Shown in pieces: positions 10,667 through 47,757 of a stretch of 64,000 nt of DNA. The translations under genes and the position numbers were made by a program. How positions within the stretch are numbered: position 1 is the first letter of the stretch; every line of letters begins with the position of its first letter. This DNA is from Chthoniobacterales bacterium (GTDB lineage: Bacteria > Verrucomicrobiota > Verrucomicrobiia > Chthoniobacterales > UBA10450), in the NCBI GenBank assembly GCA_045809795.1, contig JBJMXD010000005.1, forward strand, positions 225,177-289,176, read 5' to 3'. A model generated the notes under the pieces. That model saw only the letters and a program-made list of their open reading frames with translations. It was not told where the DNA came from and searched no databases.

Positions 10667-10775
10667 AAAAAAAAAGTCCGCCAGAGAACTACGGCAAAGA
10701 GGATCAGACTACCGTTGCTGCATTCCTGCTCTGGCGGGGTTCGTAAGTCCTCAGTCCATAGCCCCTGACGGAAAG
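10667..10775 (-). ncRNA. ffs: Candidate signal-recognition-particle RNA (small bacterial 4.5S type)
   Basis: The minus strand folds into one long hairpin: CCGUCAG/CUGGCGG, CUAUGG/CCGUAG, GAGGA/UCCUC, CCG/CGG, GCA/UGC. It is capped by a GGAA tetraloop flanked by CAGA and AGCA internal-loop strands (compare E. coli CAGG...GGAA...AGCA). A U9 tract follows. Confidence 0.55.
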
Positions 10776-14094: not shown

Positions 14095-14746
14095 CTCGAA
14101 GTTCCTTAAGCCCGTCATAGATTTTTTTCAGGCCCAACTCGAGCCTGGTTTTGACCGTCCCTAACGGTGTATTCGTTTTTGCGGCGATTTCGCGCTGACT
14201 CATCCCCCGAAAAAATGCGAGATTTATCGCCTCCTGTTGAGCCTCCGGCAAAGTGTCGATCACCTGGCGAACCAAGACCCGAGTGTCGCCGAAGCTGATT
14301 TCCTGTTCGGTGGCGTTGTGCACCCAGGCGTCAGGTTGTTGCTCGGTCTCGCTCTGAAGTCGCTCGCCGGCCCGCGCATAAGCCTGTTTCTTCCGCAATC
14401 CATCGATGGCCCGCCGGCGCGCCAGAGTCACCATCCACCCGAGCGGTTTTCCTTTTTGTGGCGAAAAGTTTTTGGCCTGGTTCCAGATCTCCATGAAGAT
14501 TTCCTGGAGCAGATCGTCCGCTTCCGTTTCGTTGTGAATGACGCGGAGAATGAGCGCCTTGATGATGCCGTTGTAGCGGTCATACAATTGCGAGAGCGCT
14601 TCGGGATCTTCCGCCTGGATGCCGTGCATTAATTCCAGATCGGTCGGCGCGCCCGGTTCCAAAGGCGGTGTCGCCGCGGGCAGCCGGACGTTGCGCGCTT
14701 CGGCAGACTCATCCGGTAGTCCGGTGATGGACAAATCTAGCGCCAT
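14084..14746 (-). CDS. ECF-type RNA polymerase sigma-70 family factor
   Basis: 220 aa from ATG at 14746. Region 2 (LLQEIFMEIWNQAKNF...) and a region 4 HTH (MSQREIAAKTNTPLGTVKTRL). Confidence 0.85.
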   Translation of the reverse strand: MALDLSITGLPDESAEARNVRLPAATPPLEPGAPTDLELMHGIQAEDPEALSQLYDRYNGIIKALILRVIHNETEADDLLQEIFMEIWNQAKNFSPQKGKPLGWMVTLARRRAIDGLRKKQAYARAGERLQSETEQQPDAWVHNATEQEISFGDTRVLVRQVIDTLPEAQQEAINLAFFRGMSQREIAAKTNTPLGTVKTRLELGLKKIYDGLKELRDEL

Positions 14747-33298: not shown

Positions 33299-34168
33299 AT
33301 GAAACCAGGAAAATTCACCCACACCATCGCCGTCCTGCTTTCTTCGATTACGGCGTTCTTTACCCACTCCGCGCCGGCCGCGGTCCCGGCGTCGAAGATC
33401 AAGCTCAGCAAGAAATCGAATTCGTCGAAGAAAGAAGGCCTCCTCAAGGTCGATCCTATTTCTTACACGCCCATGGCGAGCAACGATCCCCCATTGAACA
33501 ACCCCGGCGAAAAGTTTCCGTGGCGAAAAGAAATCGTCACCACCGTTTTTTGGATCGGCGAGAAACCGACCGCGAATAATCCCGTACCGAATCGCTCCAG
33601 TTCATGGGACGCAAACTGGACGAAGAACTACGGCGGGTTCGACGATCCGGAGAAATCGCATCGGCACGATTTCATTCCGGCGAAGTTCACCCCGCGACAA
33701 AATCCGTTCTACTGCGCGCTGCCTTACAACGACAAAGCGCGCGACGGCCACCGGCCCGAAGCGCCGCGCGTCGTGCCGTGGTTCAACGAAGCGTATCAAG
33801 GCCCCGGCGTTTCCACCTGCAAAGGCCGCTGGATCGCGATCCGCAAAGGAAACAAGGTCGCCTACGCGCAATGGGAAGATGCCGGTCCATTTCGGACCGA
33901 TCACTGGCAATACGTTTTCGGCAACGAACGTCCGAAACCGAACCTGAACAAAGGCGCCGGGCTCGACGTTTCACCAGCCGTCCGCGATTACCTGGGCATT
34001 GACGAGACCGACGTAACCGATTGGAAATTCGTCGACTTCAGCGAAGTACCTCACGGCCCCTGGTCCAAGCTCGGTGATAACAACACGTTTGTGATCAACG
34101 CCCGTAAAGGCATCGCGACGGTGGCCTCCGCGAATCCTACCCCCGGCGGCGTGACGGTTCGGCCCTAG
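33299..34168 (+). CDS. Hypothetical secreted protein (possibly the first, degenerate cassette)
   Basis: 289 aa. Signal peptide (IAVLLSSITAFFTHSAPA), then a conserved-looking Trp/Pro-rich core. The TAG stop lies in a degenerate R''-like CCCTAGC. Confidence 0.65.
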   Translation: MKPGKFTHTIAVLLSSITAFFTHSAPAAVPASKIKLSKKSNSSKKEGLLKVDPISYTPMASNDPPLNNPGEKFPWRKEIVTTVFWIGEKPTANNPVPNRSSSWDANWTKNYGGFDDPEKSHRHDFIPAKFTPRQNPFYCALPYNDKARDGHRPEAPRVVPWFNEAYQGPGVSTCKGRWIAIRKGNKVAYAQWEDAGPFRTDHWQYVFGNERPKPNLNKGAGLDVSPAVRDYLGIDETDVTDWKFVDFSEVPHGPWSKLGDNNTFVINARKGIATVASANPTPGGVTVRP

Positions 34169-34263
34169 CAACGACATGACGCCCCGTTCCCTCCCGACTT
34201 CGCCGTGATAGGCGAAAAAATGTTCGCCTTTAAATACGAACCTTCGTCTAATTCTCGTTAGAC
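34163..34263 (+). repeat. attC0, a decayed attC-like site (R''-like CCCTAGC ... R' GTTAGAC)
   Basis: The 3' end CGTCTAATTCTCGTTAGAC matches the attC7 3' end. The 5' half is only loosely similar, and the L-box pairing is lost. Confidence 0.5.
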
Positions 34264-34264
34264 G

Positions 34265-34561
34265 TTGAGAGCCGTGCACTATCACGATGGAACACCAGTG
34301 AAGCTCGGCGATCGGGTGCGTGCGGCCATTCCGGGCGGCACAGCCCCGGCACGCATCGTCATGCTCGGAGACACCTATGAGCATCTGGAGATCGATCCAC
34401 AGTTCCTGAGCTGGGTGAAGCGTGACAGAGTGCTGGAGCCAGCGCATGTTGTGCTCGAGTGGATCGAGGAAAACCCCTTTGCACATGACGATCCGAAATA
34501 TGCTCCAGTCGGAAACTTCATGTTTTCACCGCTCGATTCTGCAGTCACGCGTGACGTCTAA
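34265..34561 (+). CDS. Cassette 1 ORF, hypothetical
   Basis: 98 aa. TTG at 34265 (alternative GTG at 34274) lies 2 nt after the R' core. The stop TAA is the TAA of the attC1 R'' box. No family recognised. Confidence 0.5.
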   Translation: MRAVHYHDGTPVKLGDRVRAAIPGGTAPARIVMLGDTYEHLEIDPQFLSWVKRDRVLEPAHVVLEWIEENPFAHDDPKYAPVGNFMFSPLDSAVTRDV

Positions 34562-34678
34562 CCATGCGATGGAGCGAACGCCGGACCGCTTCGCGTCCAC
34601 ATTTGAGATGACTTCGACACTTCCACTCCGAGCGATGCGCGGTCTCGCCAGCCGTCGCTCATCTTGTTCTCGTTAGAT
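34556..34678 (+). repeat. attC1 (123 bp, loop class I)
   Basis: GTCTAAC...GGAGCGAACG...TTTGAGATGACTTCGACACTTCCACTCCGAGCGA...CGTCGCTCATCTTGTTCTCGTTAGAT. Confidence 0.85.
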
Positions 34679-34725
34679 GACGCGACGTGCCTTCTGGAAT
34701 CACCAAGAAATAGCTCGCGACCCAC

Positions 34726-35124
34726 ATGAGCTCCGATTTTGACCCGCGCCCGGACGAGCCTGCCGGCCACGTCGCGGACTCCTTTGTTCGGATGTTCTTC
34801 GGTGACGACGAGACTCGAGCGGAAGCCCTATCCTGGCTCAAAGCGGGTGGTGACAAGCACACTTTGGGAGAGCTAGCCTCCACTTCCGTATCAGTTCGCT
34901 TAGTCAACGCCGTTTATCGCGCCGGTGCGACGAAGGTTTGGGCCGTCGAGATCGACAGGTATCCCGATGGCAGGGAAAATACTGGCAAGATTGTTATCGA
35001 GTTGCCGGACGAGCCCCGGCTACGCAGTCAAGTCTTGGCGTGGGCGAGTCGGAAATCTAGAGCCAAAGGTTTTGGTGAAATCTACGACGAAAAGCAACAT
35101 TATGTTTTCCTCATGCTGGACTGA
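34726..35124 (+). CDS. Cassette 2 ORF, hypothetical cytoplasmic
   Basis: 132 aa with an ATG start. Stops 3 nt before attC2. Confidence 0.6.
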   Translation: MSSDFDPRPDEPAGHVADSFVRMFFGDDETRAEALSWLKAGGDKHTLGELASTSVSVRLVNAVYRAGATKVWAVEIDRYPDGRENTGKIVIELPDEPRLRSQVLAWASRKSRAKGFGEIYDEKQHYVFLMLD

Positions 35125-35127
35125 GTC

Positions 35128-35250
35128 ATCTAACCAAGCGATGGAGCGAACGGCGACCCGCTTTCGGTCCGCGCGCTCGCCAGCTAGAGTGTCTTTCGTG
35201 AAGGCACAGCGCGCTCTCGGTCGCCGTCGCTCATCTTGTTCTCGTTAGAT
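35128..35250 (+). repeat. attC2 (123 bp, unique loop)
   Basis: ATCTAAC ... GAGCGAACGGCGACC / GGTCGCCGTCGCTC ... GTTAGAT. Confidence 0.85.
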
Positions 35251-35521
35251 GGTGAATGCCGTTCCCAAAGCAGCGAACAAAAGACCAGCGTGGCAGCGCC
35301 GCGCTGTGAGTCAGCTTCAGTGGCGGCATCTTTATGCATGGCTTTTGAGTCTTGGTGTGGCACTTGTCATCGGATACGCCCTTCAGCAATGTGGATTGGC
35401 TTCGGTTCCTTGGGCGCTTTTATTCGTTCTTCCTTTTGTCCTTGCCTCCAGTTTCATGATCCCGCTCGCATATCGTCGCGGCTTGGAGGACGGGAGAGCG
35501 CACCCGTCTGACTCGGAGTGA
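35249..35521 (+). CDS. Cassette 3 ORF, small membrane protein (2 TM)
   Basis: 90 aa. The ATG overlaps the R' core (GTTAGATG). Hydrophobic helices LYAWLLSLGVALVIGYAL and WALLFVLPFVLASSFMI. Confidence 0.55.
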   Translation: MVNAVPKAANKRPAWQRRAVSQLQWRHLYAWLLSLGVALVIGYALQQCGLASVPWALLFVLPFVLASSFMIPLAYRRGLEDGRAHPSDSE

Positions 35522-35542
35522 GCTGATGCAGCAGCGCCGACC

Positions 35543-35665
35543 ATCTAACCATGCGATGGAGCGAACGGCGGACCGCCGCATGACAAGTATGAAGGAAAAA
35601 TTAAGAATTAAGAAGTATCCGGAGCGCGCTCCCGTCCGCCGTCGCTCATCTTGTTCTCGTTAGAT
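35543..35665 (+). repeat. attC3 (123 bp, loop class III)
   Basis: ATCTAAC ... GAGCGAACGGCGGAC ... ATGACAAGTATGAAGGAAAAATTAAGAATTAAGAAGTAT ... GTCCGCCGTCGCTC ... GTTAGAT. Confidence 0.85.
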
Positions 35666-36206
35666 GTTTCGACTGCACGTAACACGAACGATTTGGTTCG
35701 CAGCACTCGCGTGTGGGCTTGCCGCGATGGGTGAGGACACGCCAGTAACCAGCGCTCAGCAGCCCGCGCTCGAGAAGCTCGCAGGATCGGTCGGGGTTTG
35801 GGAGAGCACCACGCGGTATCGATTCGCGCCGGATATGCCTGTCTTTGAGAGCCACAGTGTCGAGACGACGCAGTGGTCCCCGAACCACAAGTTTCTGATT
35901 TCGGACCAGCGAGGAACAATGCCTGACGGGACGATAAACCGGGTCGTTGTCATTACTTGGGATCCGAAGGAGAAGTTGTACAAGCTGGTGGCGATCTATG
36001 CCGGAGGAGAAACCGAGCAACTGGCAATGACTGTCGAGGGCAGCGTGCGAACCATCGTCTCCTATCGTCACATCGGTGAGCGCATGATTCGCTGTGAGAA
36101 TAAGATGGAAGACACATCACCTACGGAATTTAAGGCCCGCTGCGAATGCACGGATCGGGAAACGAATTGGACCTTCTCGGAGGCAAGCTCAAAGAAAGTG
36201 CAGTGA
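35664..36206 (+). CDS. Cassette 4 ORF, secreted protein (DUF1579-like, tentative)
   Basis: 180 aa. The ATG overlaps the R' core. Signal peptide TIWFAALACGLAAMG. Confidence 0.65.
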   Translation: MFRLHVTRTIWFAALACGLAAMGEDTPVTSAQQPALEKLAGSVGVWESTTRYRFAPDMPVFESHSVETTQWSPNHKFLISDQRGTMPDGTINRVVVITWDPKEKLYKLVAIYAGGETEQLAMTVEGSVRTIVSYRHIGERMIRCENKMEDTSPTEFKARCECTDRETNWTFSEASSKKVQ

Positions 36207-36212
36207 GCCAAC

Positions 36213-36335
36213 ATCTAACCAAACGATGGAGCGAACGGCTGGCAGCCATGGAAAGTAAGATTTAAGAATTATGAAGCATGAAACCGCAGCGACGCGCCGT
36301 CCCGCCAGCCGTCGCTCATGTTGTTCTCGTTAGGC
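36213..36335 (+). repeat. attC4 (123 bp, loop class II)
   Basis: ATCTAAC ... GAGCGAACGGCTGGC ... GGAAAGTAAGATTTAAGAATTATGAAG ... GCCAGCCGTCGCTC ... GTTAGGC. Confidence 0.85.
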
Positions 36336-36353
36336 GACTAGCACGCGTCACCC

Positions 36354-36704
36354 ATGGATCCATTTCCAGAACCGCATGAACTGCTCTCATTCTTCTCGCA
36401 GGAGCCGGAGCTCGCGCACGCCGACACGCCGCCCTTTTACAATACCCTCAGATTCAGCGGGCGCGTCGGTGAGATCGCTTACGTCGTCAGGATTTCTCCG
36501 TCAGATCGCGAGCTACGGCTGCAGACGCAGTCCGACCAGATGAATGTCGATCTTGCCGTCACAGATGTCGCTGGCCTTACGGTTCACGAGGGGCCGACGG
36601 AGTCCCTTATGATGGCGACGTTTTCGCCTGACAGTCGACGCGGGCTTCTTAAGTTTCGTCTGCATCCACGCCTTGAGGTCGAATGGCCGTTCGAGAAGCA
36701 TTGA
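36354..36704 (+). CDS. Cassette 5 ORF, hypothetical
   Basis: 116 aa with an ATG start. No signal peptide. Confidence 0.55.
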   Translation: MDPFPEPHELLSFFSQEPELAHADTPPFYNTLRFSGRVGEIAYVVRISPSDRELRLQTQSDQMNVDLAVTDVAGLTVHEGPTESLMMATFSPDSRRGLLKFRLHPRLEVEWPFEKH

Positions 36705-36714
36705 CGACCGGTCG

Positions 36715-36837
36715 CCTAACCATGCGATGGAGCGAACGGCGGACCGCTGTGCGCTCCACTTTTGAGATGACTTCCACACTTCCACTCCGAGCGACGCGCG
36801 CTCTGGTCCGCCGTCGCTCATCTTGTTCTCGTTAGGC
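36715..36837 (+). repeat. attC5 (123 bp, loop class I)
   Basis: GCCTAAC ... GAGCGAACGGCGGACC ... TTTGAGATGACTTCCACACTTCCACTCCGAGCGA ... GGTCCGCCGTCGCTC ... GTTAGGC. Confidence 0.85.
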
Positions 36838-36839
36838 GT

Positions 36840-38072
36840 ATGAAACCACGCCCTCGATATTATTATGCCGCACTGCTCGGTGTCTTGTGTGCCGCTGGTT
36901 CGGGCCCCCTTCGGGCCGATCACGTGGATGACGTCGTAGCGGCGCAGATAAGACAACACCACATTCCGGGACTCGCGCTGGCAATCATCGAAGGAGGTGC
37001 GGTCGCCAGAGAACAAGGTTATGGATACGCGGACACAAGCCAGAGGACGGCAGTGACGCCTTCAACGCTTTTTCAGGCCGGCTCCGTCAGCAAAGCCGTC
37101 TCCGCATTGGGCGCGCTGCATCTCGTTGATCAGGGCAAAGCGTCACTAGACGAGGATATCAACTCGAAGCTGCGGACATGGCAAATACCGCAGAACGGGT
37201 TCACAAAAGAACATGCCGTGACGCTGCGGCTGATTCTCAGCCATAGTGCGGGTCTGACAGTGCATGGGTTTTCAGGCTATCCGGTGGACGCACCGCTCCC
37301 GTCCCTCGTGCAGATTCTCAACGGGCAAAGGCCGGCTAATTCAGCCGCGGTTCGCGTTGAAGAAGTTCCGGGGAGCCATTGGAATTACTCGGGAGGAGGC
37401 TATCTCGTCATTCAGCAAATGATAATGGATCTTACAGGAAAGCCGTTTGGGCAGTATATGCATGAGACGGTTCTGCAGCCTCTCGGGATGGTTTCCAGCT
37501 CGTATGCACAGCCGTTGCCAGCCGCAATGGCCGACCACGCGGCGACGGGTTACGCCGGTCTGTTTCGCCGTGCCATCAAAGGCCGCTGGCGTGTTCATCC
37601 GGAGTTGGCGGCCGCGGGTCTGTGGACGACGCCTGGCGATCTGGCTCGCTTCTTGATAGGTATCCAGCGCTCACGCGCTGGCACCTCCAATCCGATCATC
37701 TCGCGGTCCACCACGCGTCAAATGCTGACGAACCAAAAAAATGATGATGGTCTCGGCGTATTTATCGGAGGCGAGCCGCTCAAGTTCGGCCACGACGGAA
37801 GCAACGTGGGGTTCGATACCATGACCATCGCTTTTGCCGATAGAGGGCAAGGCGCAGTTATCATGATGAACACCAATGTGGACATCAAAGCTCTGAAAGA
37901 GATTCTGTTGGATGCTATCGGCGAGCAGTATCGCTGGCCGGGTTATCCAGTTGGATCGCGCCGAACGCCTAACCATGCGATGCAGCCAACCCCTGGCCGG
38001 CGTACGACCCAGTTTTCCATGACTTTAACCTCTCATCCCGCAGCCACGCGCGCCCACGCCAGCGGTGGCTGA
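36840..38072 (+). CDS. Cassette 6 ORF, secreted beta-lactamase-fold serine hydrolase (class C / family VIII esterase / PBP-like)
   Basis: 410 aa. Signal peptide YYYAALLGVLCAAGSGPLRA. Has SxxK (FQAGSVSKAV), YSGGGY and HDGSNVGF motifs. The last ~35 codons run through attC6. Confidence 0.85.
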   Translation: MKPRPRYYYAALLGVLCAAGSGPLRADHVDDVVAAQIRQHHIPGLALAIIEGGAVAREQGYGYADTSQRTAVTPSTLFQAGSVSKAVSALGALHLVDQGKASLDEDINSKLRTWQIPQNGFTKEHAVTLRLILSHSAGLTVHGFSGYPVDAPLPSLVQILNGQRPANSAAVRVEEVPGSHWNYSGGGYLVIQQMIMDLTGKPFGQYMHETVLQPLGMVSSSYAQPLPAAMADHAATGYAGLFRRAIKGRWRVHPELAAAGLWTTPGDLARFLIGIQRSRAGTSNPIISRSTTRQMLTNQKNDDGLGVFIGGEPLKFGHDGSNVGFDTMTIAFADRGQGAVIMMNTNVDIKALKEILLDAIGEQYRWPGYPVGSRRTPNHAMQPTPGRRTTQFSMTLTSHPAATRAHASGG

Positions 38073-38089
38073 TCTTGTTCTCGTTAGGT
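37967..38089 (+). repeat. attC6 (123 bp, divergent, class IV-related loop)
   Basis: GCCTAAC ... CAGCCAACCCCTGGC / GCCAGCGGTGGCTG ... GTTAGGT. Fully contained in the 3' end of the preceding ORF. Confidence 0.8.
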
Positions 38090-38107
38090 GACTAGAACGT
38101 CCTCCCT

Positions 38108-38461
38108 GTGGCCAATCCCGACAAACGCACTTCGTATCTCAAAAAGCTCGTCAGTGCCGCGCGCGCCGTCATCACCTATCAGGTCGGTTTGCCATTCGGC
38201 TGCGCGCGCATTGGCGGGCTCCTCTCTGCGCTGCGCCCGTTCGAGCCGCTCGATTATCCTGTATTCGACGAGTACCGTAATGCCATCGTCAATCTGCCGG
38301 TGGGGACGGAGCGGCTTCATTGGGCCCGTGAGAGTCTCCGCGAGAAGGACATTCGGCTCGAAGCCATCACTGGTGAGTTTCGCGATCGCATTTTCGAGGC
38401 CTGTTATGACATCATTGATCGCCATGCCGAGCCTGTTGACAAGCAACGCGACGTCACCTAA
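38108..38461 (+). CDS. Cassette 7 ORF, hypothetical
   Basis: 117 aa with a GTG start. The stop TAA is the TAA of the attC7 R'' box. Confidence 0.5.
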   Translation: MANPDKRTSYLKKLVSAARAVITYQVGLPFGCARIGGLLSALRPFEPLDYPVFDEYRNAIVNLPVGTERLHWARESLREKDIRLEAITGEFRDRIFEACYDIIDRHAEPVDKQRDVT

Positions 38462-38578
38462 CCAAGCGATGGAGCGAACGGCCGGCAGTCCTGGAAAGTA
38501 AGATTTAAGAATTATGAAGGATGAAACCAAAGCCACGCGCTCTCCGGCCAGCCGTCGCTCATCTAATTCTCGTTAGAT
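38456..38578 (+). repeat. attC7 (123 bp, loop class II)
   Basis: ACCTAAC ... GGAAAGTAAGATTTAAGAATTATGAAGG ... CCAGCCGTCGCTCATCTAATTCTCGTTAGAT. Confidence 0.85.
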
Positions 38579-38972
38579 GGCTCCGCGCTCCTTTTGGCGG
38601 TCTCGCTTGATCCTCCTTTGCGCATTTCTGCTGGTTGCCGGATGCGTATCACTGACAAGTGTCGTTCTCGCACCCAATCCCCACCCGCGTGAGGCATTAA
38701 CCCTCGATTTGCGCCTGGCGTACGTGCACATTCACCGTCAAACCATAATGGACACGCTTCTCGCGATCGACAGCGCCATCAAACGACAGTCCGGCCGGAG
38801 GCATGGCCTCGCCTTCTCCGTGGAATACGGAGGGGGCAAAAATGTTTCCATTGATGCTCACGACATGACTGTGAGGAGCTTGCTCCTCCAGATCTGTCGC
38901 CAGTCTGACCTCATTTGCGAGATGGACGATCCGAATTCGCCTTACGACGTTTCCATCACCTCCCGAAACTAG
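38577..38972 (+). CDS. Cassette 8 ORF, lipoprotein
   Basis: 131 aa. The ATG overlaps the R' core. Lipobox LLVAGC. Confidence 0.65.
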   Translation: MAPRSFWRSRLILLCAFLLVAGCVSLTSVVLAPNPHPREALTLDLRLAYVHIHRQTIMDTLLAIDSAIKRQSGRRHGLAFSVEYGGGKNVSIDAHDMTVRSLLLQICRQSDLICEMDDPNSPYDVSITSRN

Positions 38973-38981
38973 AGTGAAAAC

Positions 38982-39104
38982 ATCTAACCATGCGATGGAG
39001 CGAACGGCGGACCGTCCGTATGCAAGGCGGAATTAAAAATTAAGAATTATGAAACAAGCAACGCGCGCTCTCGTCCGCCGTTGCTCATCTTGTTCTCGTT
39101 AGGC
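38982..39104 (+). repeat. attC8 (123 bp, class III variant)
   Basis: ATCTAAC ... GAGCGAACGGCGGAC ... AATTAAAAATTAAGAATTATGAAAC ... GTCCGCCGTTGCTC ... GTTAGGC. Confidence 0.85.
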
Positions 39105-39112
39105 CTCTCCAA

Positions 39113-39802
39113 ATGCGCTGGTTACAAATCTTCGCCATTCCAGCTGTTGTGGTAACCGCTTTTGCGGCAGACCAAGCTATCACAGTCGGCGGCGACCGAG
39201 CGAAGGAACTGTCCCGGGAAGACATCAGCAATATCGTATTGCTTTGCAAACAGACGCGACCTTCGGAACGTCTGTGGGCGGTTGTTACCGATAAGAGCCC
39301 TGCCGCACCAAACCAGATGTTACGCGCCACAGTCTATTTCTATCCGACTTTGATTCAGTCTCGGCTCAGGACGGGTTCGGCAGCTTCGGTGACCGCGGGA
39401 GTATCTGCCGACAAATTCGTCAGCATACAATCTCGGCAAGGACGCTGGATTAGCAGCGGAGCGCAATTAGCCAAGTATGCACAAGTTGCCATCGATGATA
39501 GCCAGTTCCTGAATGCACCTGGAGACATTCGCGACCCCCAAGAAGGCCCATTTTTTGTCGCCAACGAGATTTTAGACGCGGACATTGTTTCGATCGTCGA
39601 TTCCTTGCGCGCTTTCTTACGGGCCGATCCCAGTTCCGCCGGACCGGCGCGCAGGACTCATCCAATCACCATCATGATGGGTTCCAAGAGTCATGCTGAG
39701 GTCTGGTCGAGTGGGGGCGATAAGCATTTTGACACCTACGTGCTCGACAAGCACGGCGAGAAGTGGAGCATTTCTAAGACTGGACAGTTCGACGCACAAT
39801 GA
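39113..39802 (+). CDS. Cassette 9 ORF, secreted protein
   Basis: 229 aa. Signal peptide MRWLQIFAIPAVVVTAFAA. Confidence 0.65.
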   Translation: MRWLQIFAIPAVVVTAFAADQAITVGGDRAKELSREDISNIVLLCKQTRPSERLWAVVTDKSPAAPNQMLRATVYFYPTLIQSRLRTGSAASVTAGVSADKFVSIQSRQGRWISSGAQLAKYAQVAIDDSQFLNAPGDIRDPQEGPFFVANEILDADIVSIVDSLRAFLRADPSSAGPARRTHPITIMMGSKSHAEVWSSGGDKHFDTYVLDKHGEKWSISKTGQFDAQ

Positions 39803-39818
39803 CAAGTCGCCCCACGAC

Positions 39819-39941
39819 GCCTAACCAAGCGATGGAGCGAACGGCGGACCGCCGGATGACAAGTATGAAGGAAGAATTAAGAATTAAGAAGTATTCGGAG
39901 CGCGCTCTCGTCCGCCGTCGCTCATCTTGTTCTCGTTAGGC
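39819..39941 (+). repeat. attC9 (123 bp, loop class III)
   Basis: GCCTAAC ... ATGACAAGTATGAAGGAAGAATTAAGAATTAAGAAGTAT ... GTTAGGC. Nearly identical to attC3. Confidence 0.85.
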
Positions 39942-39943
39942 CC

Positions 39944-40318
39944 ATGCAGCGCGTCTTGATGCCATTGGTCACCTTCATCGGTGCGATTATCGCATCTACG
40001 GTGATGGCGGCGTCGGATATCCCATTAATCTGCGAGGAGAACCTTGCCACCGAACACAAGCGGTGCGGCATCTCTGACGCGCAGGCTCGTGAGGCCATGC
40101 GCTTCGTCAGGAGGATTCCCGGTGTGAGTCATCAGATCATCACGATCGATGCGCTCGATCTACCGCAGGTTGTCGTCACCACAGGCGAGCCATTCGAGCG
40201 GGGCCACACCGTCTTTTTGCGACGGATGGGTCGGCGTTGGACAGTGGAGAAGACGGTCCCGTGGACCAAGAAAGATTGGATCATCTTAGGCGCGAACAGG
40301 CCTAACCAAACGCTGTAG
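39944..40318 (+). CDS. Cassette 10 ORF, secreted protein
   Basis: 124 aa. Signal peptide LMPLVTFIGAIIASTVMAA. The reading frame passes through the attC10 R'' box. Confidence 0.6.
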   Translation: MQRVLMPLVTFIGAIIASTVMAASDIPLICEENLATEHKRCGISDAQAREAMRFVRRIPGVSHQIITIDALDLPQVVVTTGEPFERGHTVFLRRMGRRWTVEKTVPWTKKDWIILGANRPNQTL

Positions 40319-40423
40319 CGAACGCCTACCCGTCGTTCGCCCAACATTTCCTATGACTAAACCATTTCACCTCCGATCGACGCTCGCCTCTGGTAGGCGT
40401 CACTGATCTCTTTCTGGTTAGAC
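40300..40423 (+). repeat. attC10 (124 bp, loop class IV)
   Basis: GCCTAAC ... GTAGCGAACGCCTACC ... CATGACTAAACCATTTCAC ... GGTAGGCGTCACTG ... GTTAGAC. Confidence 0.8.
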
Positions 40424-40425
40424 CT

Positions 40426-41028
40426 ATGAGCACGCCATTCCAAGTCGTCGCGCTGGTCGGACTAGCGGCCTGGCTGTGCCCGAAGGCCTACGCGCCGATC
40501 TACGGTGGCTATCCAGGTTTGCATTCGCTCATCAAACAGTCAGAAATTGTCGCCGCCGTCACGATACTCGAGCGGTTGTCGGACGACGATTTCGGTGATT
40601 CCGCGCGATACAAGATACAGTTCGACAAGCTGCTGAAGGGATCCGCGTCAGAGAAGCAAGTCGTCGCTTACCTCCGCTACCTCGAAATCATTCCAGAGGA
40701 GGAGATGCGACGCACCCCTCGGCCGGGGCCGCAGCCATCAACCCATTACTTTGCTCTAACGGACCGGCTTGAGCCGTTCCGTAGGCAAGCGCGGTTCGTT
40801 GTCTTCTTAACGAAAGCGAGGAAAGAGGTCGAGACGGCATACGAAAACGTTAACTGCATGGGATCGACATTTCCTTTGTCCCCGCTAAGAGATCTTGACG
40901 CGCTCAAGATGGATTCATTGCCGGATACCCTGATTCTCCTTTTCCGAGAGTATGTTGACTTCAGGCGCACAGAGCTGAAGGAAGTTGAGGCGCAGCTAAG
41001 TGAATTTGTTCATCATCGCGACGAATAG
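40426..41028 (+). CDS. Cassette 11 ORF, secreted protein
   Basis: 200 aa. Signal-like N-terminus FQVVALVGLAAWLCPKAYA. The TAG stop abuts attC11. Confidence 0.65.
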   Translation: MSTPFQVVALVGLAAWLCPKAYAPIYGGYPGLHSLIKQSEIVAAVTILERLSDDDFGDSARYKIQFDKLLKGSASEKQVVAYLRYLEIIPEEEMRRTPRPGPQPSTHYFALTDRLEPFRRQARFVVFLTKARKEVETAYENVNCMGSTFPLSPLRDLDALKMDSLPDTLILLFREYVDFRRTELKEVEAQLSEFVHHRDE

Positions 41029-41151
41029 GTCTAACCAAGCGATGGAGCGAACGGCTGGCAGCAGTGGAAAGTAAGATTTAAGAAGTATGAAGGAAAAAAC
41101 CGCAGCCACGCGCTGTTCCCCCAGCCGTCGCTCATCTTGTTCTCGTTAGAC
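41029..41151 (+). repeat. attC11 (123 bp, loop class II)
   Basis: GTCTAAC ... GAGCGAACGGCTGG ... GGAAAGTAAGATTTAAGAAGTATGAAGG ... CCAGCCGTCGCTC ... GTTAGAC. Confidence 0.85.
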
Positions 41152-41154
41152 CCA

Positions 41155-41682
41155 GTGAAAACGTTCGCCCTCTTGCTCTGCGTTGTTGGAATCGCGGCTG
41201 GCGAAACCCGGTCGATTAGCGATCTGACCCCGAGCGGCATAGTGGGTAATTGGGAGTCCCTGGCAGCGCGGGCGGACGGGGTACCGGTCCCCATCGTGCT
41301 CCAAATGTCTTTTACCGCTCCGGACGCCGCACACCTCGTGGTCAGTAACTCCACGGATCCGGAGTCTACTCCTCGGTTTCTTGGGAAGCTGACGAGTTCC
41401 AGCCTAATCAAAGGGAAGATCCATCTTAGATTTTCTGCAGTGCCTCCATATCCGATTCCTGCCGAGGGAGTGGATTATGGATATGATCGAGTAGAGATCG
41501 ACGGGCGCGCGACCGATGCCGGTGAGCTCTCCTCGGTGGAAGGAACGCTTGTGATGCACGGTACAAAGGAGAAGGAAGTGACGTATCGCGTTTTTTTCCT
41601 TAAGTCGCTTTGGGTGCATGAGCTTGCTCAATATTCGAGAGCCGCTCAGGAAATCATAAAGAATGTGCAAGCTCACCATTAG
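41155..41682 (+). CDS. Cassette 12 ORF, secreted protein
   Basis: GTG at 41155 gives (M)KTFALLLCVVGIAAG. The track start at 41137 is a TTG inside attC11 and was rejected. Confidence 0.6.
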   Translation: MKTFALLLCVVGIAAGETRSISDLTPSGIVGNWESLAARADGVPVPIVLQMSFTAPDAAHLVVSNSTDPESTPRFLGKLTSSSLIKGKIHLRFSAVPPYPIPAEGVDYGYDRVEIDGRATDAGELSSVEGTLVMHGTKEKEVTYRVFFLKSLWVHELAQYSRAAQEIIKNVQAHH

Positions 41683-41804
41683 TCTAACCACGCGATGCAG
41701 CGAACGCCTACCCGTCGTTCGCCTGACATTTCCCATGACTAAATCATTCCACTTCCGACCAACGCTCGCCTCGGTAGGCGTCGCTGATCTCTTTCTCGTT
41801 AGAT
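41682..41804 (+). repeat. attC12 (123 bp, loop class IV)
   Basis: GTCTAAC ... CAGCGAACGCCTACC ... CATGACTAAATCATTCCAC ... GGTAGGCGTCGCTG ... GTTAGAT. Confidence 0.85.
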
Positions 41805-42312
41805 GGTAACCGCCAAGACTATTACCACGCTGCTCGCCATAGCACCGATCGTCGTCCTCGTGGTGGCTTGGGCACGGCGCTTCATATCCAACACCGATGG
41901 TGGGCTCGTTTCGGTCGATGACGTTCCGCAGCTGCTATCGGCGCTTACTGGCACCGGCAAGGATGGCTCGTTTTGGGTCGTGCTTGTCCCGAACACGGCG
42001 CGAGAGGATGGCAATTTCGCGAATCTACAATTCTCGATCGAAGGTGACCGCGTCGGGATGGATTGGGTGTTGCTCGCCAAGCGCAATATTGAAGACCAAG
42101 GCGCTTTTACCCAGTTTGTCGCTGCCGCTGGGGCGACTGTGCAAGACATAACGATGAATGGCGTCCGGTATCTCCGAGTAAGTGACGGTCCCGATCTGGC
42201 AAAGCTCGGTCAGGACTTTCTTCAGCAGGTTTATCACGTGGCGCCAGAAGACAAGCTACAGCTGATCATCACGGATTTCGCATGGACACCGAAGACGGCT
42301 GCGAAAAATTAA
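41803..42312 (+). CDS. Cassette 13 ORF, N-terminally anchored protein
   Basis: 169 aa. The ATG overlaps the R' core. TM segment TTLLAIAPIVVLVVAWA. The 3' end runs into the truncated attC13. Confidence 0.6.
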   Translation: MVTAKTITTLLAIAPIVVLVVAWARRFISNTDGGLVSVDDVPQLLSALTGTGKDGSFWVVLVPNTAREDGNFANLQFSIEGDRVGMDWVLLAKRNIEDQGAFTQFVAAAGATVQDITMNGVRYLRVSDGPDLAKLGQDFLQQVYHVAPEDKLQLIITDFAWTPKTAAKN

Positions 42313-42366
42313 GAAGTGCTCAACGTCCGCTCAGGCCAGCCGTTGCTCGCCCTGTTCTCATTAGAC
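42306..42366 (+). repeat. attC13, a 5'-truncated attC remnant (class III-like 3' half, R' degenerated to ATTAGAC)
   Basis: AAATTAAGAAGTGCT...CCAGCCGTTGCTCGCCCTGTTCTCATTAGAC. No R''/L'' half is present. Confidence 0.6.
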
Positions 42367-42379
42367 CAACGCAGGCGAA

Positions 42380-42697
42380 ATGAATGGATTATTGCTCGTC
42401 GTTACTTCTATTTCGGGCATGTTGGCATTCGCGTTTTTCCTTCTCGCGTTCATGTCGCTCACGGCGATCGACGCAGCAGAGAGGGCCGAGATAAATGAGG
42501 CCGCGCGACGGTTCTTTCCAGGAGACGGCTTCTTTGCGCAGTTAAATCGGCGTGGGTACATCCAAAGCGAAGCAGGGTCGGCGTCCCGGATGGGCGATCA
42601 TTGGCGGGCACGCCCACAAATTCGCACGTTCCTTTCACTGGGCGCCGGCTTTCTCCTTATCGCTGTGATTTGCGGGCATTTCGCCACGCTGCCATAA
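42380..42697 (+). CDS. Cassette 14 ORF, small membrane protein (2 TM)
   Basis: 105 aa; LLLVVTSISGMLAFAFFLLAFM and FLSLGAGFLLIAVICG. Confidence 0.55.
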   Translation: MNGLLLVVTSISGMLAFAFFLLAFMSLTAIDAAERAEINEAARRFFPGDGFFAQLNRRGYIQSEAGSASRMGDHWRARPQIRTFLSLGAGFLLIAVICGHFATLP

Positions 42698-42710
42698 AGT
42701 CGTATTAAAG

Positions 42711-42831
42711 GTCTAACCAGGTGATGCAGCGAACCGTGCTTGATTTTGGTTCACGTTTCAGAGCAGCAAAAGCTTTAGCTCGCCGCCAACACGCTCTCGC
42801 GGACGGAAGTTGGTCTTGTGTCTCATGAGGA
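42711..42831 (+). repeat. attC14, an attC with intact R'' (GTCTAAC) but a degenerate 3' end (…GTCTTGTGTCTCATGAGGA)
   Basis: The 5' GTCTAACCAGGTGATGCAGCGAAC matches the family. The 3' end resembles ATCTTGTTCTCGTTAG with substitutions. Confidence 0.55.
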
Positions 42832-43085
42832 GCCGACGTGTCGTGAAAACTCTCAGCGTGATTGTCGGGGGAATTCTTGTCGCGGTCGGTGTTGTCGGCA
42901 GCGCAGCGGGCGTCTTCGCGTTAATTGATCCAAAAGGTTCAAAGGCGGCAGATGATGGAGATCCATTCGGCCCGCCGTCGGGCGTTCTGGAGTCTTCGGT
43001 CATGCTGGGTGTCTACGTCGCAATTACCGCGGTTGGGGTTTACCTGTTGTGGAGGTCACGCCGGAGGCAGCGCATATCCACCTAA
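42825..43085 (+). CDS. Cassette 15 ORF, small membrane protein (2 TM)
   Basis: 86 aa from ATG at 42825, which occupies the position of the degenerate R'. The stop TAA is the TAA of the terminal R'' stub. Confidence 0.5.
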   Translation: MRSRRVVKTLSVIVGGILVAVGVVGSAAGVFALIDPKGSKAADDGDPFGPPSGVLESSVMLGVYVAITAVGVYLLWRSRRRQRIST

Positions 43086-43100
43086 CGAGGCGATCAGAAG
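43080..43100 (+). repeat. attC15, a terminal attC stub (ACCTAACGAGGCGAT...)
   Basis: Only R'' plus ~8 nt are retained. Similarity ends where the convergent kinase stop codon (43094-43096) begins. Confidence 0.5.
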
Positions 43101-44656
43101 AGTTCCGGATGATCGTCGGCGACGGGTTCGGGGGTGATGATGGAGCGGATTTTGGCGAGGAGATCGTTGAAGTCGTAGGGCTTTTGGATCGTGTCGATGA
43201 CCCCGGCTTTCAACATTTCGGAACGAATCGCGGGTTCTAGATACCCGCTAGCGACGATGGCGCGGACGCCGGGGCGGCTCTCTTTCATTTTCAGAAAGGC
43301 TTCGCGGCCACCGAGGCGGGGCAGACCGAGATCGCAAACGACGAGGCCAATCTCGGCACTATGGGTTTCGAAAAGAGAGACGGCTTCGATGCCGTCCTTC
43401 GCGGGAAGAACGCGGAAGCCTTCGCTCTCCAGGATGGAAACGCCGAGTTCGCGGAGCATGTCTTCGTCTTCCACCAGCAGGATGGTTTGCGGAATGTCCT
43501 GGCGCGGCGCGCCGGTCCGATCGGGGCCCAGTTGCTCGGCGGCGACGTGTTTGACCGGTAAATAAATGATGAAGCTGGTGCCGGTGCCGGGCTCGCTCTC
43601 GACCTGGACGAAACCGCGGTGGTTGTTGACCACGCCGTAAACGACGGAGAGCCCGAGGCCGGTGCCTTTGCCGCGCTCTTTCGTGCTGAAGAACGGCTCG
43701 AAAATGTGCGACTTTACCTCACGCGTCATGCCGATGCCGGAGTCGCGCACCCGAATGCAGGCGTAATTGTCCGCGGTCACGCCGGAAAAAATTTCCATGA
43801 GATCGGAGCCGGGAGTGATGCCGGTGCTGAGAGTCAGCGTGCCGCCCTCGGGCATCGCGTCCCGGGCGTTCACGCAAAGATTCAGCAGGACTTGGTGAAG
43901 CTGGCTCTTATCGGCGGTGACGAGCGAAAGTTCGGAGGCGAGGTCGAGATTGAAGCTGATCGTCTTCGGAAATGTTGCCTGGAGCATCGGTTCGAGATCG
44001 CGCACCAGCGCGTTCAGATCGACCGACGAAAAACGCGCTTCAGTCTGGCGCGCTGAGGTCAGCAATTGCTGAACGAGGGCCGCGCCGCGATCGACGGCTT
44101 CCTTGATGACTTTGATCGCGCCGGGAAATTCGTTTGGCTTCGCGTGCGAGCTTTCGAGTTTGTTGGTGTACCCGAGAATGATCGCAAGGATGTTGTTGAA
44201 ATCGTGCGCGATGCCGGCGGCCAGCGTGCCCAGGCCTTCCATCTTCTGCGCCTGGACGAGTTGCTCCTCGAGCCTCTTCCGTTTTGTATCGTTGAAGAGG
44301 TAAACGTGGAGATCGACCAATTCGCCGGCCGTGAAATTTCCAACCAACCGGCCGACGACATACACGGGGTTGCCGTTGCGCTGCGTCATTTCCAATTCGT
44401 GGCGGTCGACGATTCCGTGCTGCCGCACCATCTCCAGCAATTCGACTCCGTCCTGCCGGCTCCGAAGCAACGAAAGAACGTTCGCGGACCGCGCTTCTTC
44501 CGCCGATTCAAATCCAAACATGGTTAAGGCGGCCGGATTGCACCCGATAATCTGGCCATCCGTCCGCATCACGAGGATGCCGGTGAAGTTGTCAGCGACG
44601 AAACGCAGGGCGCGTTTCTCCATTTCGTCTGGTGCGTCGGAAGAATGGTTCGTCAC
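43094..44656 (-). CDS. Hybrid sensor histidine kinase/response regulator (PAS - HisKA - HATPase - REC)
   Basis: 520 aa. H-box GIAHDFNNILAIILGY, G-boxes DSGIGM and GTGLGLS, and a C-terminal receiver (ILLVEDEDMLRE...VVCDLGLP). The GTG start overlaps the upstream stop (GTGA). Confidence 0.85.
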   Translation of the reverse strand: MTNHSSDAPDEMEKRALRFVADNFTGILVMRTDGQIIGCNPAALTMFGFESAEEARSANVLSLLRSRQDGVELLEMVRQHGIVDRHELEMTQRNGNPVYVVGRLVGNFTAGELVDLHVYLFNDTKRKRLEEQLVQAQKMEGLGTLAAGIAHDFNNILAIILGYTNKLESSHAKPNEFPGAIKVIKEAVDRGAALVQQLLTSARQTEARFSSVDLNALVRDLEPMLQATFPKTISFNLDLASELSLVTADKSQLHQVLLNLCVNARDAMPEGGTLTLSTGITPGSDLMEIFSGVTADNYACIRVRDSGIGMTREVKSHIFEPFFSTKERGKGTGLGLSVVYGVVNNHRGFVQVESEPGTGTSFIIYLPVKHVAAEQLGPDRTGAPRQDIPQTILLVEDEDMLRELGVSILESEGFRVLPAKDGIEAVSLFETHSAEIGLVVCDLGLPRLGGREAFLKMKESRPGVRAIVASGYLEPAIRSEMLKAGVIDTIQKPYDFNDLLAKIRSIITPEPVADDHPELF

Positions 44657-47684: not shown

Positions 47685-47757
47685 TGCACCGCGTTGGAAT
47701 CGAACCAACAACCCAGTGATTAAGAGTCACTTGCTCTGCCAATTGAGCTAGCGGTGC
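47685..47757 (-). tRNA. tRNA-Lys (anticodon CUU)
   Basis: 73-nt cloverleaf read by hand. Acceptor GCACCGC/GCGGTGC, D stem GCTC/GAGC, anticodon stem AGTGA/TCACT with loop CTCTTAA, and T arm GTTGG-TTCGATT-CCAAC. No encoded CCA. Confidence 0.9.

Follow-up and report, generated by a model that had tools for sequence, protein, structure and literature searches.

The window analysed here is a 64,000-nucleotide (nt) stretch of a Chthoniobacterales genome (GenBank assembly GCA_045809795.1, contig JBJMXD010000005.1, positions 225,177 to 289,176). Between the gene for a conserved 289-amino-acid (aa) protein and a convergent histidine-kinase gene, it carries an attI-type site and an array of 15 short open reading frames (ORFs), each with an intact or decayed attC site behind it. 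We conclude with high confidence that this locus is a degenerate chromosomal integron of a soil member of the Chthoniobacterales (Verrucomicrobiota), made up of attI and 15 cassettes (12 with intact attC), from which the adjoining integrase gene, intI, has been deleted. It is, in current terms, a cluster of attC sites lacking an integron-integrase (CALIN) that has kept its attI.

Layout of the cassette array

The window was scanned with a regular expression for units of the form RYYYAAC-N-GTTRRRY, with N of 95-125 nt. Twelve of the 13 matches in the 64 kb lie on the + strand in one cluster at 34556-41804, starting at 34556, 35128, 35543, 36213, 36714, 37967, 38456, 38982, 39819, 40300, 41029 and 41682; the 13th, at 14132, is unrelated to the array repeats. 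A first-pass annotation made from the sequence alone had placed twelve intact repeats with these terminal boxes in the same interval, and all 12 were recovered; a repeat search of the window also put them into a single family. Unit length was 123 nt in ten repeats and 124 nt in two (36714-36837 and 40300-40423), which corrects the earlier count of eleven and one. Including three decayed sites there are 15 attC sites, all on the + strand and spaced by 415-1252 nt. Decayed copies had been annotated at both ends of the array; those at the distal end (42304-42366, 42711-42831 and 43080-43086) stood, while the left end (34207-34263) proved to be an attI-type site.

Alignment of the repeats showed that CTAAC with the next ~25 nt, and the last ~30 nt with GTTAG, are nearly invariant (CTAAC and GTTAG themselves being invariant), and that the ~60 nt in the middle are of several unrelated types. 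The 15 intervals contain one + strand ORF apiece, as had been annotated. Among the 12 ORFs that follow an intact attC, nine start -2 to +8 nt from the attC end; the ATG of GTTAGATG serves as the start codon in four cassettes, and the TAA of the R'' box doubles as the stop codon for several cassette ORFs. The array has a G+C content of 56.1%, compared with 58.5% in its flanks. Decay of the attC sites grows with distance from attI, the 12 intact sites being followed by one half site, one decayed copy and a stump, presumably because new cassettes enter at attI. The features are listed below; R1 is a covariance model of the window's own repeats, and R2 is a covariance model of class 1 attC sites.

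33299-34168, + strand: left chromosomal flank; conserved 289-aa secreted-type protein, no Pfam family, co-oriented with the cassettes (sequence comparison)
34169-34206, no strand: spacer from the stop of the upstream gene to attI; expected place of intI, with a few intI codons left at most (L187 stump; no IntI similarity here)
34207-34263, + strand: attI-type site (conserved module), with GATAGGC at 34207-34213, nested inverted repeats, L-like GTCTAA at 34246-34251 and R' box GTTAGAC at 34257-34263
34265-34561, + strand: cassette 1 ORF, 98 aa; ends at the TAA within the R'' box; no Pfam match above cut-off
34556-34678, + strand: attC 1, 123 nt (R1 116 bits; class 1 model E 1.2e-6)
34726-35124, + strand: cassette 2 ORF, 132 aa
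35128-35250, + strand: attC 2, 123 nt (pattern, R1, R2)
35249-35521, + strand: cassette 3 ORF, 90 aa, membrane-like; ATG overlaps the R' box (GTTAGATG)
35543-35665, + strand: attC 3, 123 nt (pattern, R1, R2)
35664-36206, + strand: cassette 4 ORF, 180 aa, DUF1579 (PF07617, E 1e-7), signal-peptide-like N-terminus; ATG overlaps the R' box
36213-36335, + strand: attC 4, 123 nt (pattern, R1; weak in the class 1 model, E 1.7)
36354-36704, + strand: cassette 5 ORF, 116 aa; 87% identical to a cassette flanked by two attC sites in L070
36714-36837, + strand: attC 5, 124 nt (pattern, R1, R2)
36840-38072, + strand: cassette 6 ORF, 410 aa as read; serine hydrolase of beta-lactamase/transpeptidase fold (PF00144, E 1e-53); the frame enters attC 6
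37967-38089, + strand: attC 6, 123 nt; several compensatory changes in the L stem (R1, R2)
38108-38461, + strand: cassette 7 ORF, 117 aa, DUF2489 (PF10675, E 2e-6)
38456-38578, + strand: attC 7, 123 nt (pattern, R1, R2)
38577-38972, + strand: cassette 8 ORF, 131 aa, with an N-terminus like that of lipoproteins; ATG overlaps the R' box
38982-39104, + strand: attC 8, 123 nt (pattern, R1, R2)
39113-39802, + strand: cassette 9 ORF, 229 aa, signal-peptide-like N-terminus
39819-39941, + strand: attC 9, 123 nt (pattern, R1, R2)
39944-40318, + strand: cassette 10 ORF, 124 aa; ends inside attC 10
40300-40423, + strand: attC 10, 124 nt; weakest intact copy, with two L-stem mismatches and GG before the R' box (R1 101 bits; missed by the class 1 model)
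40426-41028, + strand: cassette 11 ORF, 200 aa; 53% identical to a cassette in the L072 array
41029-41151, + strand: attC 11, 123 nt (pattern, R1, R2)
41155-41682, + strand: cassette 12 ORF, 175 aa from the GTG at 41155
41682-41804, + strand: attC 12, 123 nt; compensatory changes in the L stem (R1, R2)
41803-42312, + strand: cassette 13 ORF, 169 aa; 79% identical to a cassette in L110
42304-42366, + strand: attC 13, 5'-truncated; 3' half only, R' box decayed to ATTAGAC (nhmmer model positions 61-122)
42380-42697, + strand: cassette 14 ORF, 105 aa, membrane-like
42711-42831, + strand: attC 14, decayed; its R'' box (GTCTAAC) has kept its match to ...TTAGAC of the R' in front (R1 22.8 bits)
42810-43085, + strand: cassette 15 ORF, 91 aa, membrane-like; stop is the TAA of the last R'' stump
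43080-43086, + strand: last R''-like box, ACCTAAC, and array end; the convergent histidine-kinase gene has its stop 8 nt further on
43094-44656, - strand: right chromosomal flank; hybrid histidine kinase/response regulator

The sequence GGCGATCAG after the last R'' box was considered as an attC L'' remnant and set aside, as the empty site of L121, a related locus described below, suggests that it is of ancestral intergenic origin.

The repeats are attC sites

When folded as single-stranded DNA, the bottom strands of the repeats formed a 7-bp R stem, an asymmetric bubble (5/8 nt) and an L stem from which two extrahelical bases, both on the '' arm, bulge out. Bottom-strand folding had been proposed in the first-pass annotation as a check and yielded the R stem, bubble and bulged L stem; the unpaired spacers, given there as 9 and 11 nt, measured 5 nt next to R'' and 8 nt next to R'. 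The register reads R''(7) - 5 nt - 3 bp - bulge - 6 bp - bulge - further stem, with 8 unpaired nt before R'. This 7-5-3-bulge-6-bulge order is that of class 1 attC sites, which have 6 rather than 8 unpaired nt on the R' side. The extrahelical bases lie at top-strand positions 16 and 23 and are C and T on the bottom strand. Among 392 family members the bulged register was found in 268, compared with 2 for the unbulged one. A 23-pair structure, written by hand, was paired in 95.7% of cells, compared with 18-45% when the partner strand was slid by 1-3 columns; compensatory changes on both sides occur at 9 of the 23 pairs, and none of 500 shuffles reached the observed covariation.

The model R2 was built from 15 class 1 attC sites in 10 plasmid records (aadA1, aadA2, aadA5, aadA16, aadB, psp, a DUF1010 ORF, aac(6')-Ib, aac(6')-29a, blaVIM-2, cmlA1, estX, dfrA5, dfrA27 and arr-3) and describes the R and proximal L pairs only. 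In an unfiltered search of both strands of the window, standing in for the attC covariance-model check proposed earlier, its ten best matches were ten of the 12 repeats, all on the + strand and with exact boundaries (E 1e-6 to 0.04); nothing else in the 64 kb scored below E 0.1.

The ends of the cassettes provide a further line of evidence. R'' of each site is perfectly complementary to R' of the preceding site in 12 of 12 intact sites, compared with 5 of 12 for R' of the same site (permutation p=2e-5), and the same rule holds from attI to cassette 1 and from site 13 to site 14. By analogy with known integrons, the integrase would recognise the bottom-strand fold and cut between A and C of the R' box (G/TT on the top strand), and the cut cassettes would leave as circles and insert at attI. 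Because cassettes are cut inside R' at G/TT, the TTRRRY behind each attC is part of the cassette that comes next, and was formerly joined to the R'' of that same cassette. The cassette ends match across this cut site, and the cassettes have therefore been made and moved one by one. Matching of R'' to the preceding R' is a signature of singly circularised and inserted cassettes that a dispersed palindrome would not give. The 12 repeats are genuine integron attC sites, and the canonical ORF-attC organisation proposed in the first-pass annotation is upheld by the fold, by R2, by the R''/R' matching and by linkage to IntI genes in relatives. Their recombination by IntI is predicted, from association with IntI genes in relatives only.

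At the gathering threshold no Rfam family matches the repeats. The only Rfam matches in the window are a small signal recognition particle RNA (10676-10770, - strand, 49.6 bits) and a tRNA (47685-47757, - strand, 68.6 bits).

An attI module at the left border

The site at the left border belongs to a module of ~60 nt with the sequence [G(A/T)TAGRC]GAAAAAATGTTCG-CCTTTAAAGA-CGAACATTC[GTCTAAT]TCTC[GTTAGRY]. Facing R' in inverted orientation is an L-like box, and upstream the core box recurs as a direct copy. The module also contains nested inverted repeats; the dyad is 90% paired, with some compensatory changes. In the window the first cassette begins after G34257 of the attI R' box. Arrays begin with the module in 18 loci, all of which have same-strand attC sites downstream of it; in 17 of the 18 no attC lies upstream of it, the exception being the tandem case of L051. 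In L052, L096 and L187 the module adjoins remnants of intI, and in L009, L013 and L063 a site of the same architecture separates the intact intI from the first cassette. A reading of the left border as a decayed attC was rejected in favour of attI, as the module heads 18 arrays and adjoins intI in relatives.

Modules of this kind also head arrays that have no integrase. In at least nine tiles with enough upstream DNA there is no IntI within 2.5 kb of the module, and arrays headed by the module occupy many chromosomal sites (the window, L017, L025, L040, L078, L086, L090, L103, L106, L108, L119, L125 and L196), most of them without an integrase in that range. Two metagenome-assembled genomes (MAGs) carry two orphan attI arrays each, AV80 (L086, L091) and SMAG_U13789 (L090, L106). 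attI-headed arrays without integrase are common in the Chthoniobacterales clade. In L196 the module begins 14 nt after a NAD synthase gene; the tRNA of the window sits just after its NAD synthase gene, in the place of the array in L196.

Two observations on the module are added here. A second attI-like module lies inside the array of L051 (1728-1796); three attC precede it and one follows, all on the same strand, as if two arrays stood in tandem downstream of one intact intI. The inner repeat of attI, GTTCG-N10-CGAAC (34222-34241, and in the same place in 17 other modules), flanks a conserved CTTTAAA(G/T)A, and a T-run follows it on the - strand, so that a terminator scan called it a - strand terminator. 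The inner repeat could be a binding site for the integrase or a regulator, judging by its half-sites, which resemble TGTTC/GAACA.

Integrases are absent from the window and present in relatives

The window was searched for an integrase by two methods. With IntI1 (a query 100% identical to annotated IntI1) and six Chthoniobacterales IntI proteins, the best tblastn match to the window had an E-value of 0.17, and there was no credible match to IntI1; a profile hidden Markov model (HMM) of IntI found no match at E<=10 in a six-frame translation of the 64 kb. Consistent with the earlier statement that the 64 kb encodes no tyrosine recombinase, no integrase was found within 34 kb upstream or 21 kb downstream of the array, where the nearest flanking genes encode an exosortase, a TPR protein, the secreted protein and the histidine kinase.

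An exact-pattern scan, with one genome per species, found the same attC family in at least 119 tiles, nearly all from Chthoniobacterales, Candidatus Udaeobacter, 'Spartobacteria' or Verrucomicrobiota soil MAGs. Among the matches listed, full-length IntI was present in six tiles (51-55% identical to IntI1) and fragments in six more. Three IntI proteins tested on NCBIfam scored 445-493 bits against TIGR02249, 'integron integrase', for a cut-off of 265, and R1 found co-oriented attC arrays beside the relatives' integrases. intI is divergent from the array in L063, L013, L009, L051 and L081, and so is its stump in L187. In L104 (2174-3115; attC 116-1759), L052 (12-978) and L096 (2753-2932), intI or its remains lie on the cassette strand with the 3' end next to attI; both orientations thus occur with the same attC/attI family. 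In L096 an internal deletion of intI joins its N-terminal region to the last ~12 codons. Four genomes have an intact intI locus and a second array locus (L063+L102, L051+L071, L081+L062 and L104+L019).

The first-pass annotation had named scattered single copies, as expected of a miniature inverted-repeat transposable element (MITE), as a finding that would speak against an integron. A search with R1 found no copy outside the array in the 64 kb, and the 554 repeat copies in 120 sources, among the matches listed, form co-oriented arrays: no locus has copies on both strands, and their median spacing is 540 nt.

The exact attC 5' pattern was also seen on short contigs binned as Acidobacteria, Pyrinomonadaceae or Terriglobales (L003, L018, L021, L037 and L074); these are either mis-binned repeat-rich contigs or cases of cross-phylum cassette exchange. 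In the Raoultella plasmid pWLK-NDM (L209, 2629-4800) a group II intron (ltrA) lies in the attC of a yjjG-like cassette, a known association.

The integron locus in relatives

Both borders of the array were located by comparison with syntenic loci. AV80 (L091) shares the exosortase, the TPR protein and the 289-aa protein (71-83% identical) and has an intI-less attI at the same position; homology with it ends at 34262, inside the R' box, and the left junction was independently confirmed by Logan contig L120. On the right, homology with BP_768 (L116) returns at 43096, at the kinase stop codon; there attC sites run up to the border and the cassettes differ from those of the window. The flanks are ~80% identical up to 34262 and from 43096, with zero shared cassettes between.

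A metagenome scan with the 289-aa protein, covering 80 loci, revealed the following states downstream of its gene.

L187: a 5' intI stump of ~58 codons on the opposite strand, followed by attI, one cassette and one attC
The window and AV80 (L091): attI directly, 38 nt past the stop codon of the 289-aa gene
L124: the simple site only
L122: an attC reduced to its 3' half
L125: attI and two cassettes, separated from the 289-aa gene by 3.5 kb of other genes
L121 (protein 96% identical), L127-L132 and L136: the convergent histidine-kinase gene next, with no array

L121 is the closest relative found and is without array, as are the seven more distant loci L127-L132 and L136. Comparison of these sequences indicates that an integron once sat between the 289-aa gene and the kinase gene and that its integrase was deleted to an extent that differs between lineages. 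Cassette content is lineage-specific. A fully syntenic, invariant locus had been named as evidence that would count against an integron; relatives carry other cassettes or no array at this position.

Contents of the cassettes

Pfam families were assigned to cassettes 4 (DUF1579), 7 (DUF2489) and 6 (PF00144), with no family above cut-off for the other 12 of 15, and NCBIfam gave nothing for nine other cassette proteins tested. Inspection of the translations showed a hydrophobic, signal-peptide-like or membrane-like start in at least 10 cassette proteins. Homologues of cassettes 5, 11, 13 and 15, with 40-87% identity, lie in the arrays of other genomes beside different neighbours. The description of nearly all cassette ORFs as orphans does not hold as worded, given Pfam domains in 3 of 15 and homologues elsewhere for 4 of 15, and is correct if taken to mean 'no annotated function'.

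The frame of cassette 6 has no stop before its attC; it runs 35 codons into the repeat, to a TGA in the L' arm, and the C-terminal 38 aa match other attC sites only. The protein was considered as a class C beta-lactamase and rejected, with 66 bits against the bla_class_C cut-off of 415; it has the general PF00144 fold only.

Expression and a short ORF within attC sites

A scan for promoters and terminators found nothing above shuffled expectation. Two promoter-like matches inside attC 3 and attC 9 are weak (9/12), and no + strand terminator-like site lies between the upstream 289-aa gene and cassette 1. Because no cassette promoter is recognisable, expression would most likely occur by read-through from the co-oriented upstream gene, which is a speculative proposal.

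Short ORFs within the attC sites were surveyed in 397 family members in L001-L200. An ATG in the variable centre, in frame with the TAG of R', was found in 297 of the 397 (75%), compared with 11-14% for the other two frames; examples in the window lie at 35579-35662, 36765-36833 and 39855-39938. The bias persisted when the centres were clustered (95, 22 and 26 of 150 clusters; 75, 18 and 22 of 127 singletons) and when the dominant ATG position was left out (143 versus 55 and 67). A typical short ORF has 22 codons, encoding MTSTLPLRATRALVRRRSSCSR and ending in a stop. A conserved peptide in the attC centre was rejected, there being no codon periodicity (1.11/1.17/1.20 bits) and a synonymous to non-synonymous ratio of 142:248 against 28:53 possible; only the start, frame and stop of the short ORF are conserved.

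Most downstream ORFs begin within 10 nt of the R' TAG, leaving no room for a ribosome-binding site of their own. In class 1 integrons, ORF-11 in attI1 stops at the TAG of GTTRRRY, and short ORFs have been reported in some attC sites (PMC8876359). By analogy, the short ORF suggests that termination on it may be coupled to re-initiation on the next cassette, as for ORF-11 in the class 1 attI; we regard this coupling as a lead, not as a result. A 13-codon, ORF-11-like ORF that ends at the R' TAG of attI was found in the window only and in none of the attI sites of AV80, L187, L063, L013, L009 and L081, and was dismissed as chance.

Discussion

Several observations weigh against a degenerate integron. 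A sigma-70 consensus scan found 4 sites, with 3.9 expected, and none at attI, for a consensus that may not suit this phylum. The first extrahelical base (attC position 16, e.g. 34571) is a top-strand G, and so a bottom-strand C, in 94% of the 392 family members; in studied attC sites G is the usual first extrahelical base of the bottom strand, followed by T, and in the class 1 sites behind R2 this base, the one closest to the R box, is a top-strand C and so a bottom-strand G. Many copies centre on a largely unpaired, AT-rich loop of ~60 nt, not on the long stem of the Vibrio cholerae repeats (VCRs). The support from covariance models comes from R2, a small surrogate for IntegronFinder's attC model and intI HMMs, which missed attC 10 and nearly missed attC 4 (E 1.7). 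The absence of integrase, finally, is a finding on the 64-kb window, and an integrase encoded elsewhere in the source genome may be present in trans.

The most serious rival holds that attI and the array never had an integrase of their own at this site, having arrived or been seeded as a satellite platform that is filled in trans by an integrase from another locus. It draws on the behaviour of the module, which abuts unrelated genes with a sharp border at many loci (14 nt after NAD synthase in L196), lacks IntI within 2.5 kb in the nine or more tiles mentioned, and heads two orphan arrays each in AV80 and SMAG_U13789; it would also suit the four genomes that pair an intact intI locus with a second array locus. 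In L187, however, a 5' intI stump separates the same upstream gene from an attI of the same subtype, and an integrase was therefore once here. Internally deleted or fragmented intI also lies beside the module in L096 and L052, and the other deletion end-points at the locus in L122 and L124 fit repeated decay, not a designed satellite. We consider a satellite origin improbable.

Splitting of a complete integron by rearrangement, which would have left the array's own intI and attI outside the 64 kb, is a recognised source of CALIN (PMC4889954) and would account for a window without integrase. The array, however, starts with an attI module, which a split would have left with intI; both of its borders are conserved in relatives beside the same chromosomal genes, and L187 shows intI truncated in situ. 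A split is accordingly very unlikely. The units are also palindromic, intergenic and uniform in length, as a dispersed element might be, whether of the repetitive extragenic palindrome (REP) or bacterial interspersed mosaic element (BIME) type or a MITE, lying among short genes. This reading was refuted: there are no single copies elsewhere in the window, each locus has one orientation only, the ends match across cassettes and not within a unit, the class 1 attC model recognises the repeats, and in relatives the repeats are physically linked to integron integrases. We give it almost no weight.

A chromosomal integron that has lost its integrase remains by far the best account of the locus. New cassettes would have entered at attI, so that the newest should adjoin it. 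Without its own intI, the array would now be expected to change only through an integrase acting in trans or through homologous exchange between attC repeats. A broader and distinctly doubtful proposal is that the platform of this family is modular in two ways, with integrase-less attI arrays serviced in trans by one integrase, and with ribosomes handed over from the short ORF of an attC to the next cassette. If it were true, arrays under a single ~60-nt attI module would persist and turn over at several chromosomal sites per genome, and most attC sites would carry a translated ORF that begins in the variable centre, ends at the R' TAG and passes its ribosomes to the next start codon, 0-10 nt away and lacking a ribosome-binding site.

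The array is a well-resolved case of the origin of cassette clusters without an integrase. For a single chromosomal site, relatives provide a series of empty site, intI stump with attI, attI alone, and an attC-truncated border, which documents the 'loss of intI' route that has so far been mostly inferred in the CALIN literature. Udaeobacter and other Chthoniobacterales are among the most abundant groups of soil bacteria. A literature search found no paper linking Udaeobacter or Chthoniobacterales to integrons, and the attC and attI families defined here for these organisms would allow soil cassette metagenomes to be assigned to their host. The cassettes encode mainly small exported or membrane proteins without assigned function. 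There is no direct clinical implication, since the beta-lactamase-fold protein is not a known resistance enzyme.

Comparison with known systems

Arrays of this kind have been described before. CALIN are a common class of integrase-less attC clusters, defined by at least two clustered attC sites on one strand with no intI nearby (Cury et al. 2016, PMC4889954). The array fits this definition, with 12 intact and 3 decayed + strand sites and no intI in the window. It also resembles the published CALIN in that their cassettes are mostly of unknown function and loss of intI is among their proposed origins (PMC4889954). It differs from those of the 2016 survey in having kept an identifiable attI and in that homologous loci of relatives allow the deletion of intI to be traced; in the survey a recognisable intI pseudogene was found near 15 of 279 CALIN, attI was not searchable, and integrons in Verrucomicrobia were already noted (PMC4889954). 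Of the parts of a complete integron, attI is present and adjacent intI is not, and the array falls short of a complete integron only by this missing gene. It is not a sedentary chromosomal integron in the sense of more than 19 attC sites or presence in all genomes of a species (PMC4889954), having at most 15 sites and being absent from L121. Nor do its repeats behave as MITE or REP elements, which have scattered single copies, terminal inverted repeats with target-site duplications, and no fixed orientation.

The Xanthomonas integrons downstream of ilvD (Colombi et al. 2025, doi 10.1101/2025.06.18.660453) offer a close parallel. They too occupy a fixed, ancestral chromosomal site at which intI has been inactivated repeatedly by lineage, their arrays vary by lineage, and most of their cassettes have no known function. 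The present locus differs in belonging to Verrucomicrobiota, in that intI has been wholly removed and not just inactivated, and in that close relatives lack the whole array.

The first-pass annotation had likened the repeats to VCRs. The Vibrio cholerae superintegron has long, near-uniform attC sites in an array of more than 100 cassettes. The window shares with it the long sites (~120-130 nt), the chromosomal location and the short, tightly packed and mostly uncharacterised cassettes. In contrast to the superintegron, it has 15 cassettes and no integrase, and the array is not fixed in its lineage. Unlike VCRs, the repeats are uniform only in their ~30-nt ends, the ~60-nt centre being of several unrelated, largely unpaired types.

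In class 1 integrons, attI1 consists of a simple site plus direct repeats. The arrangement of the attI module parallels it (PMC8876359), with an inverted L/R pair and an upstream direct copy of the core box, and the attC geometry is the same. As with coupling by class 1 ORF-11 (PMC8876359), short ORFs of the family stop at the TAG of GTTRRRY just before a cassette start codon; they lie in attC instead of attI, however, an attI ORF being found in the window only. The module has no sequence similarity to attI1, and, unlike class 1 integrons, the array is chromosomal, with no resistance cassettes and no intI. Taken together, these comparisons place the array within a real and already well-described kind of element.

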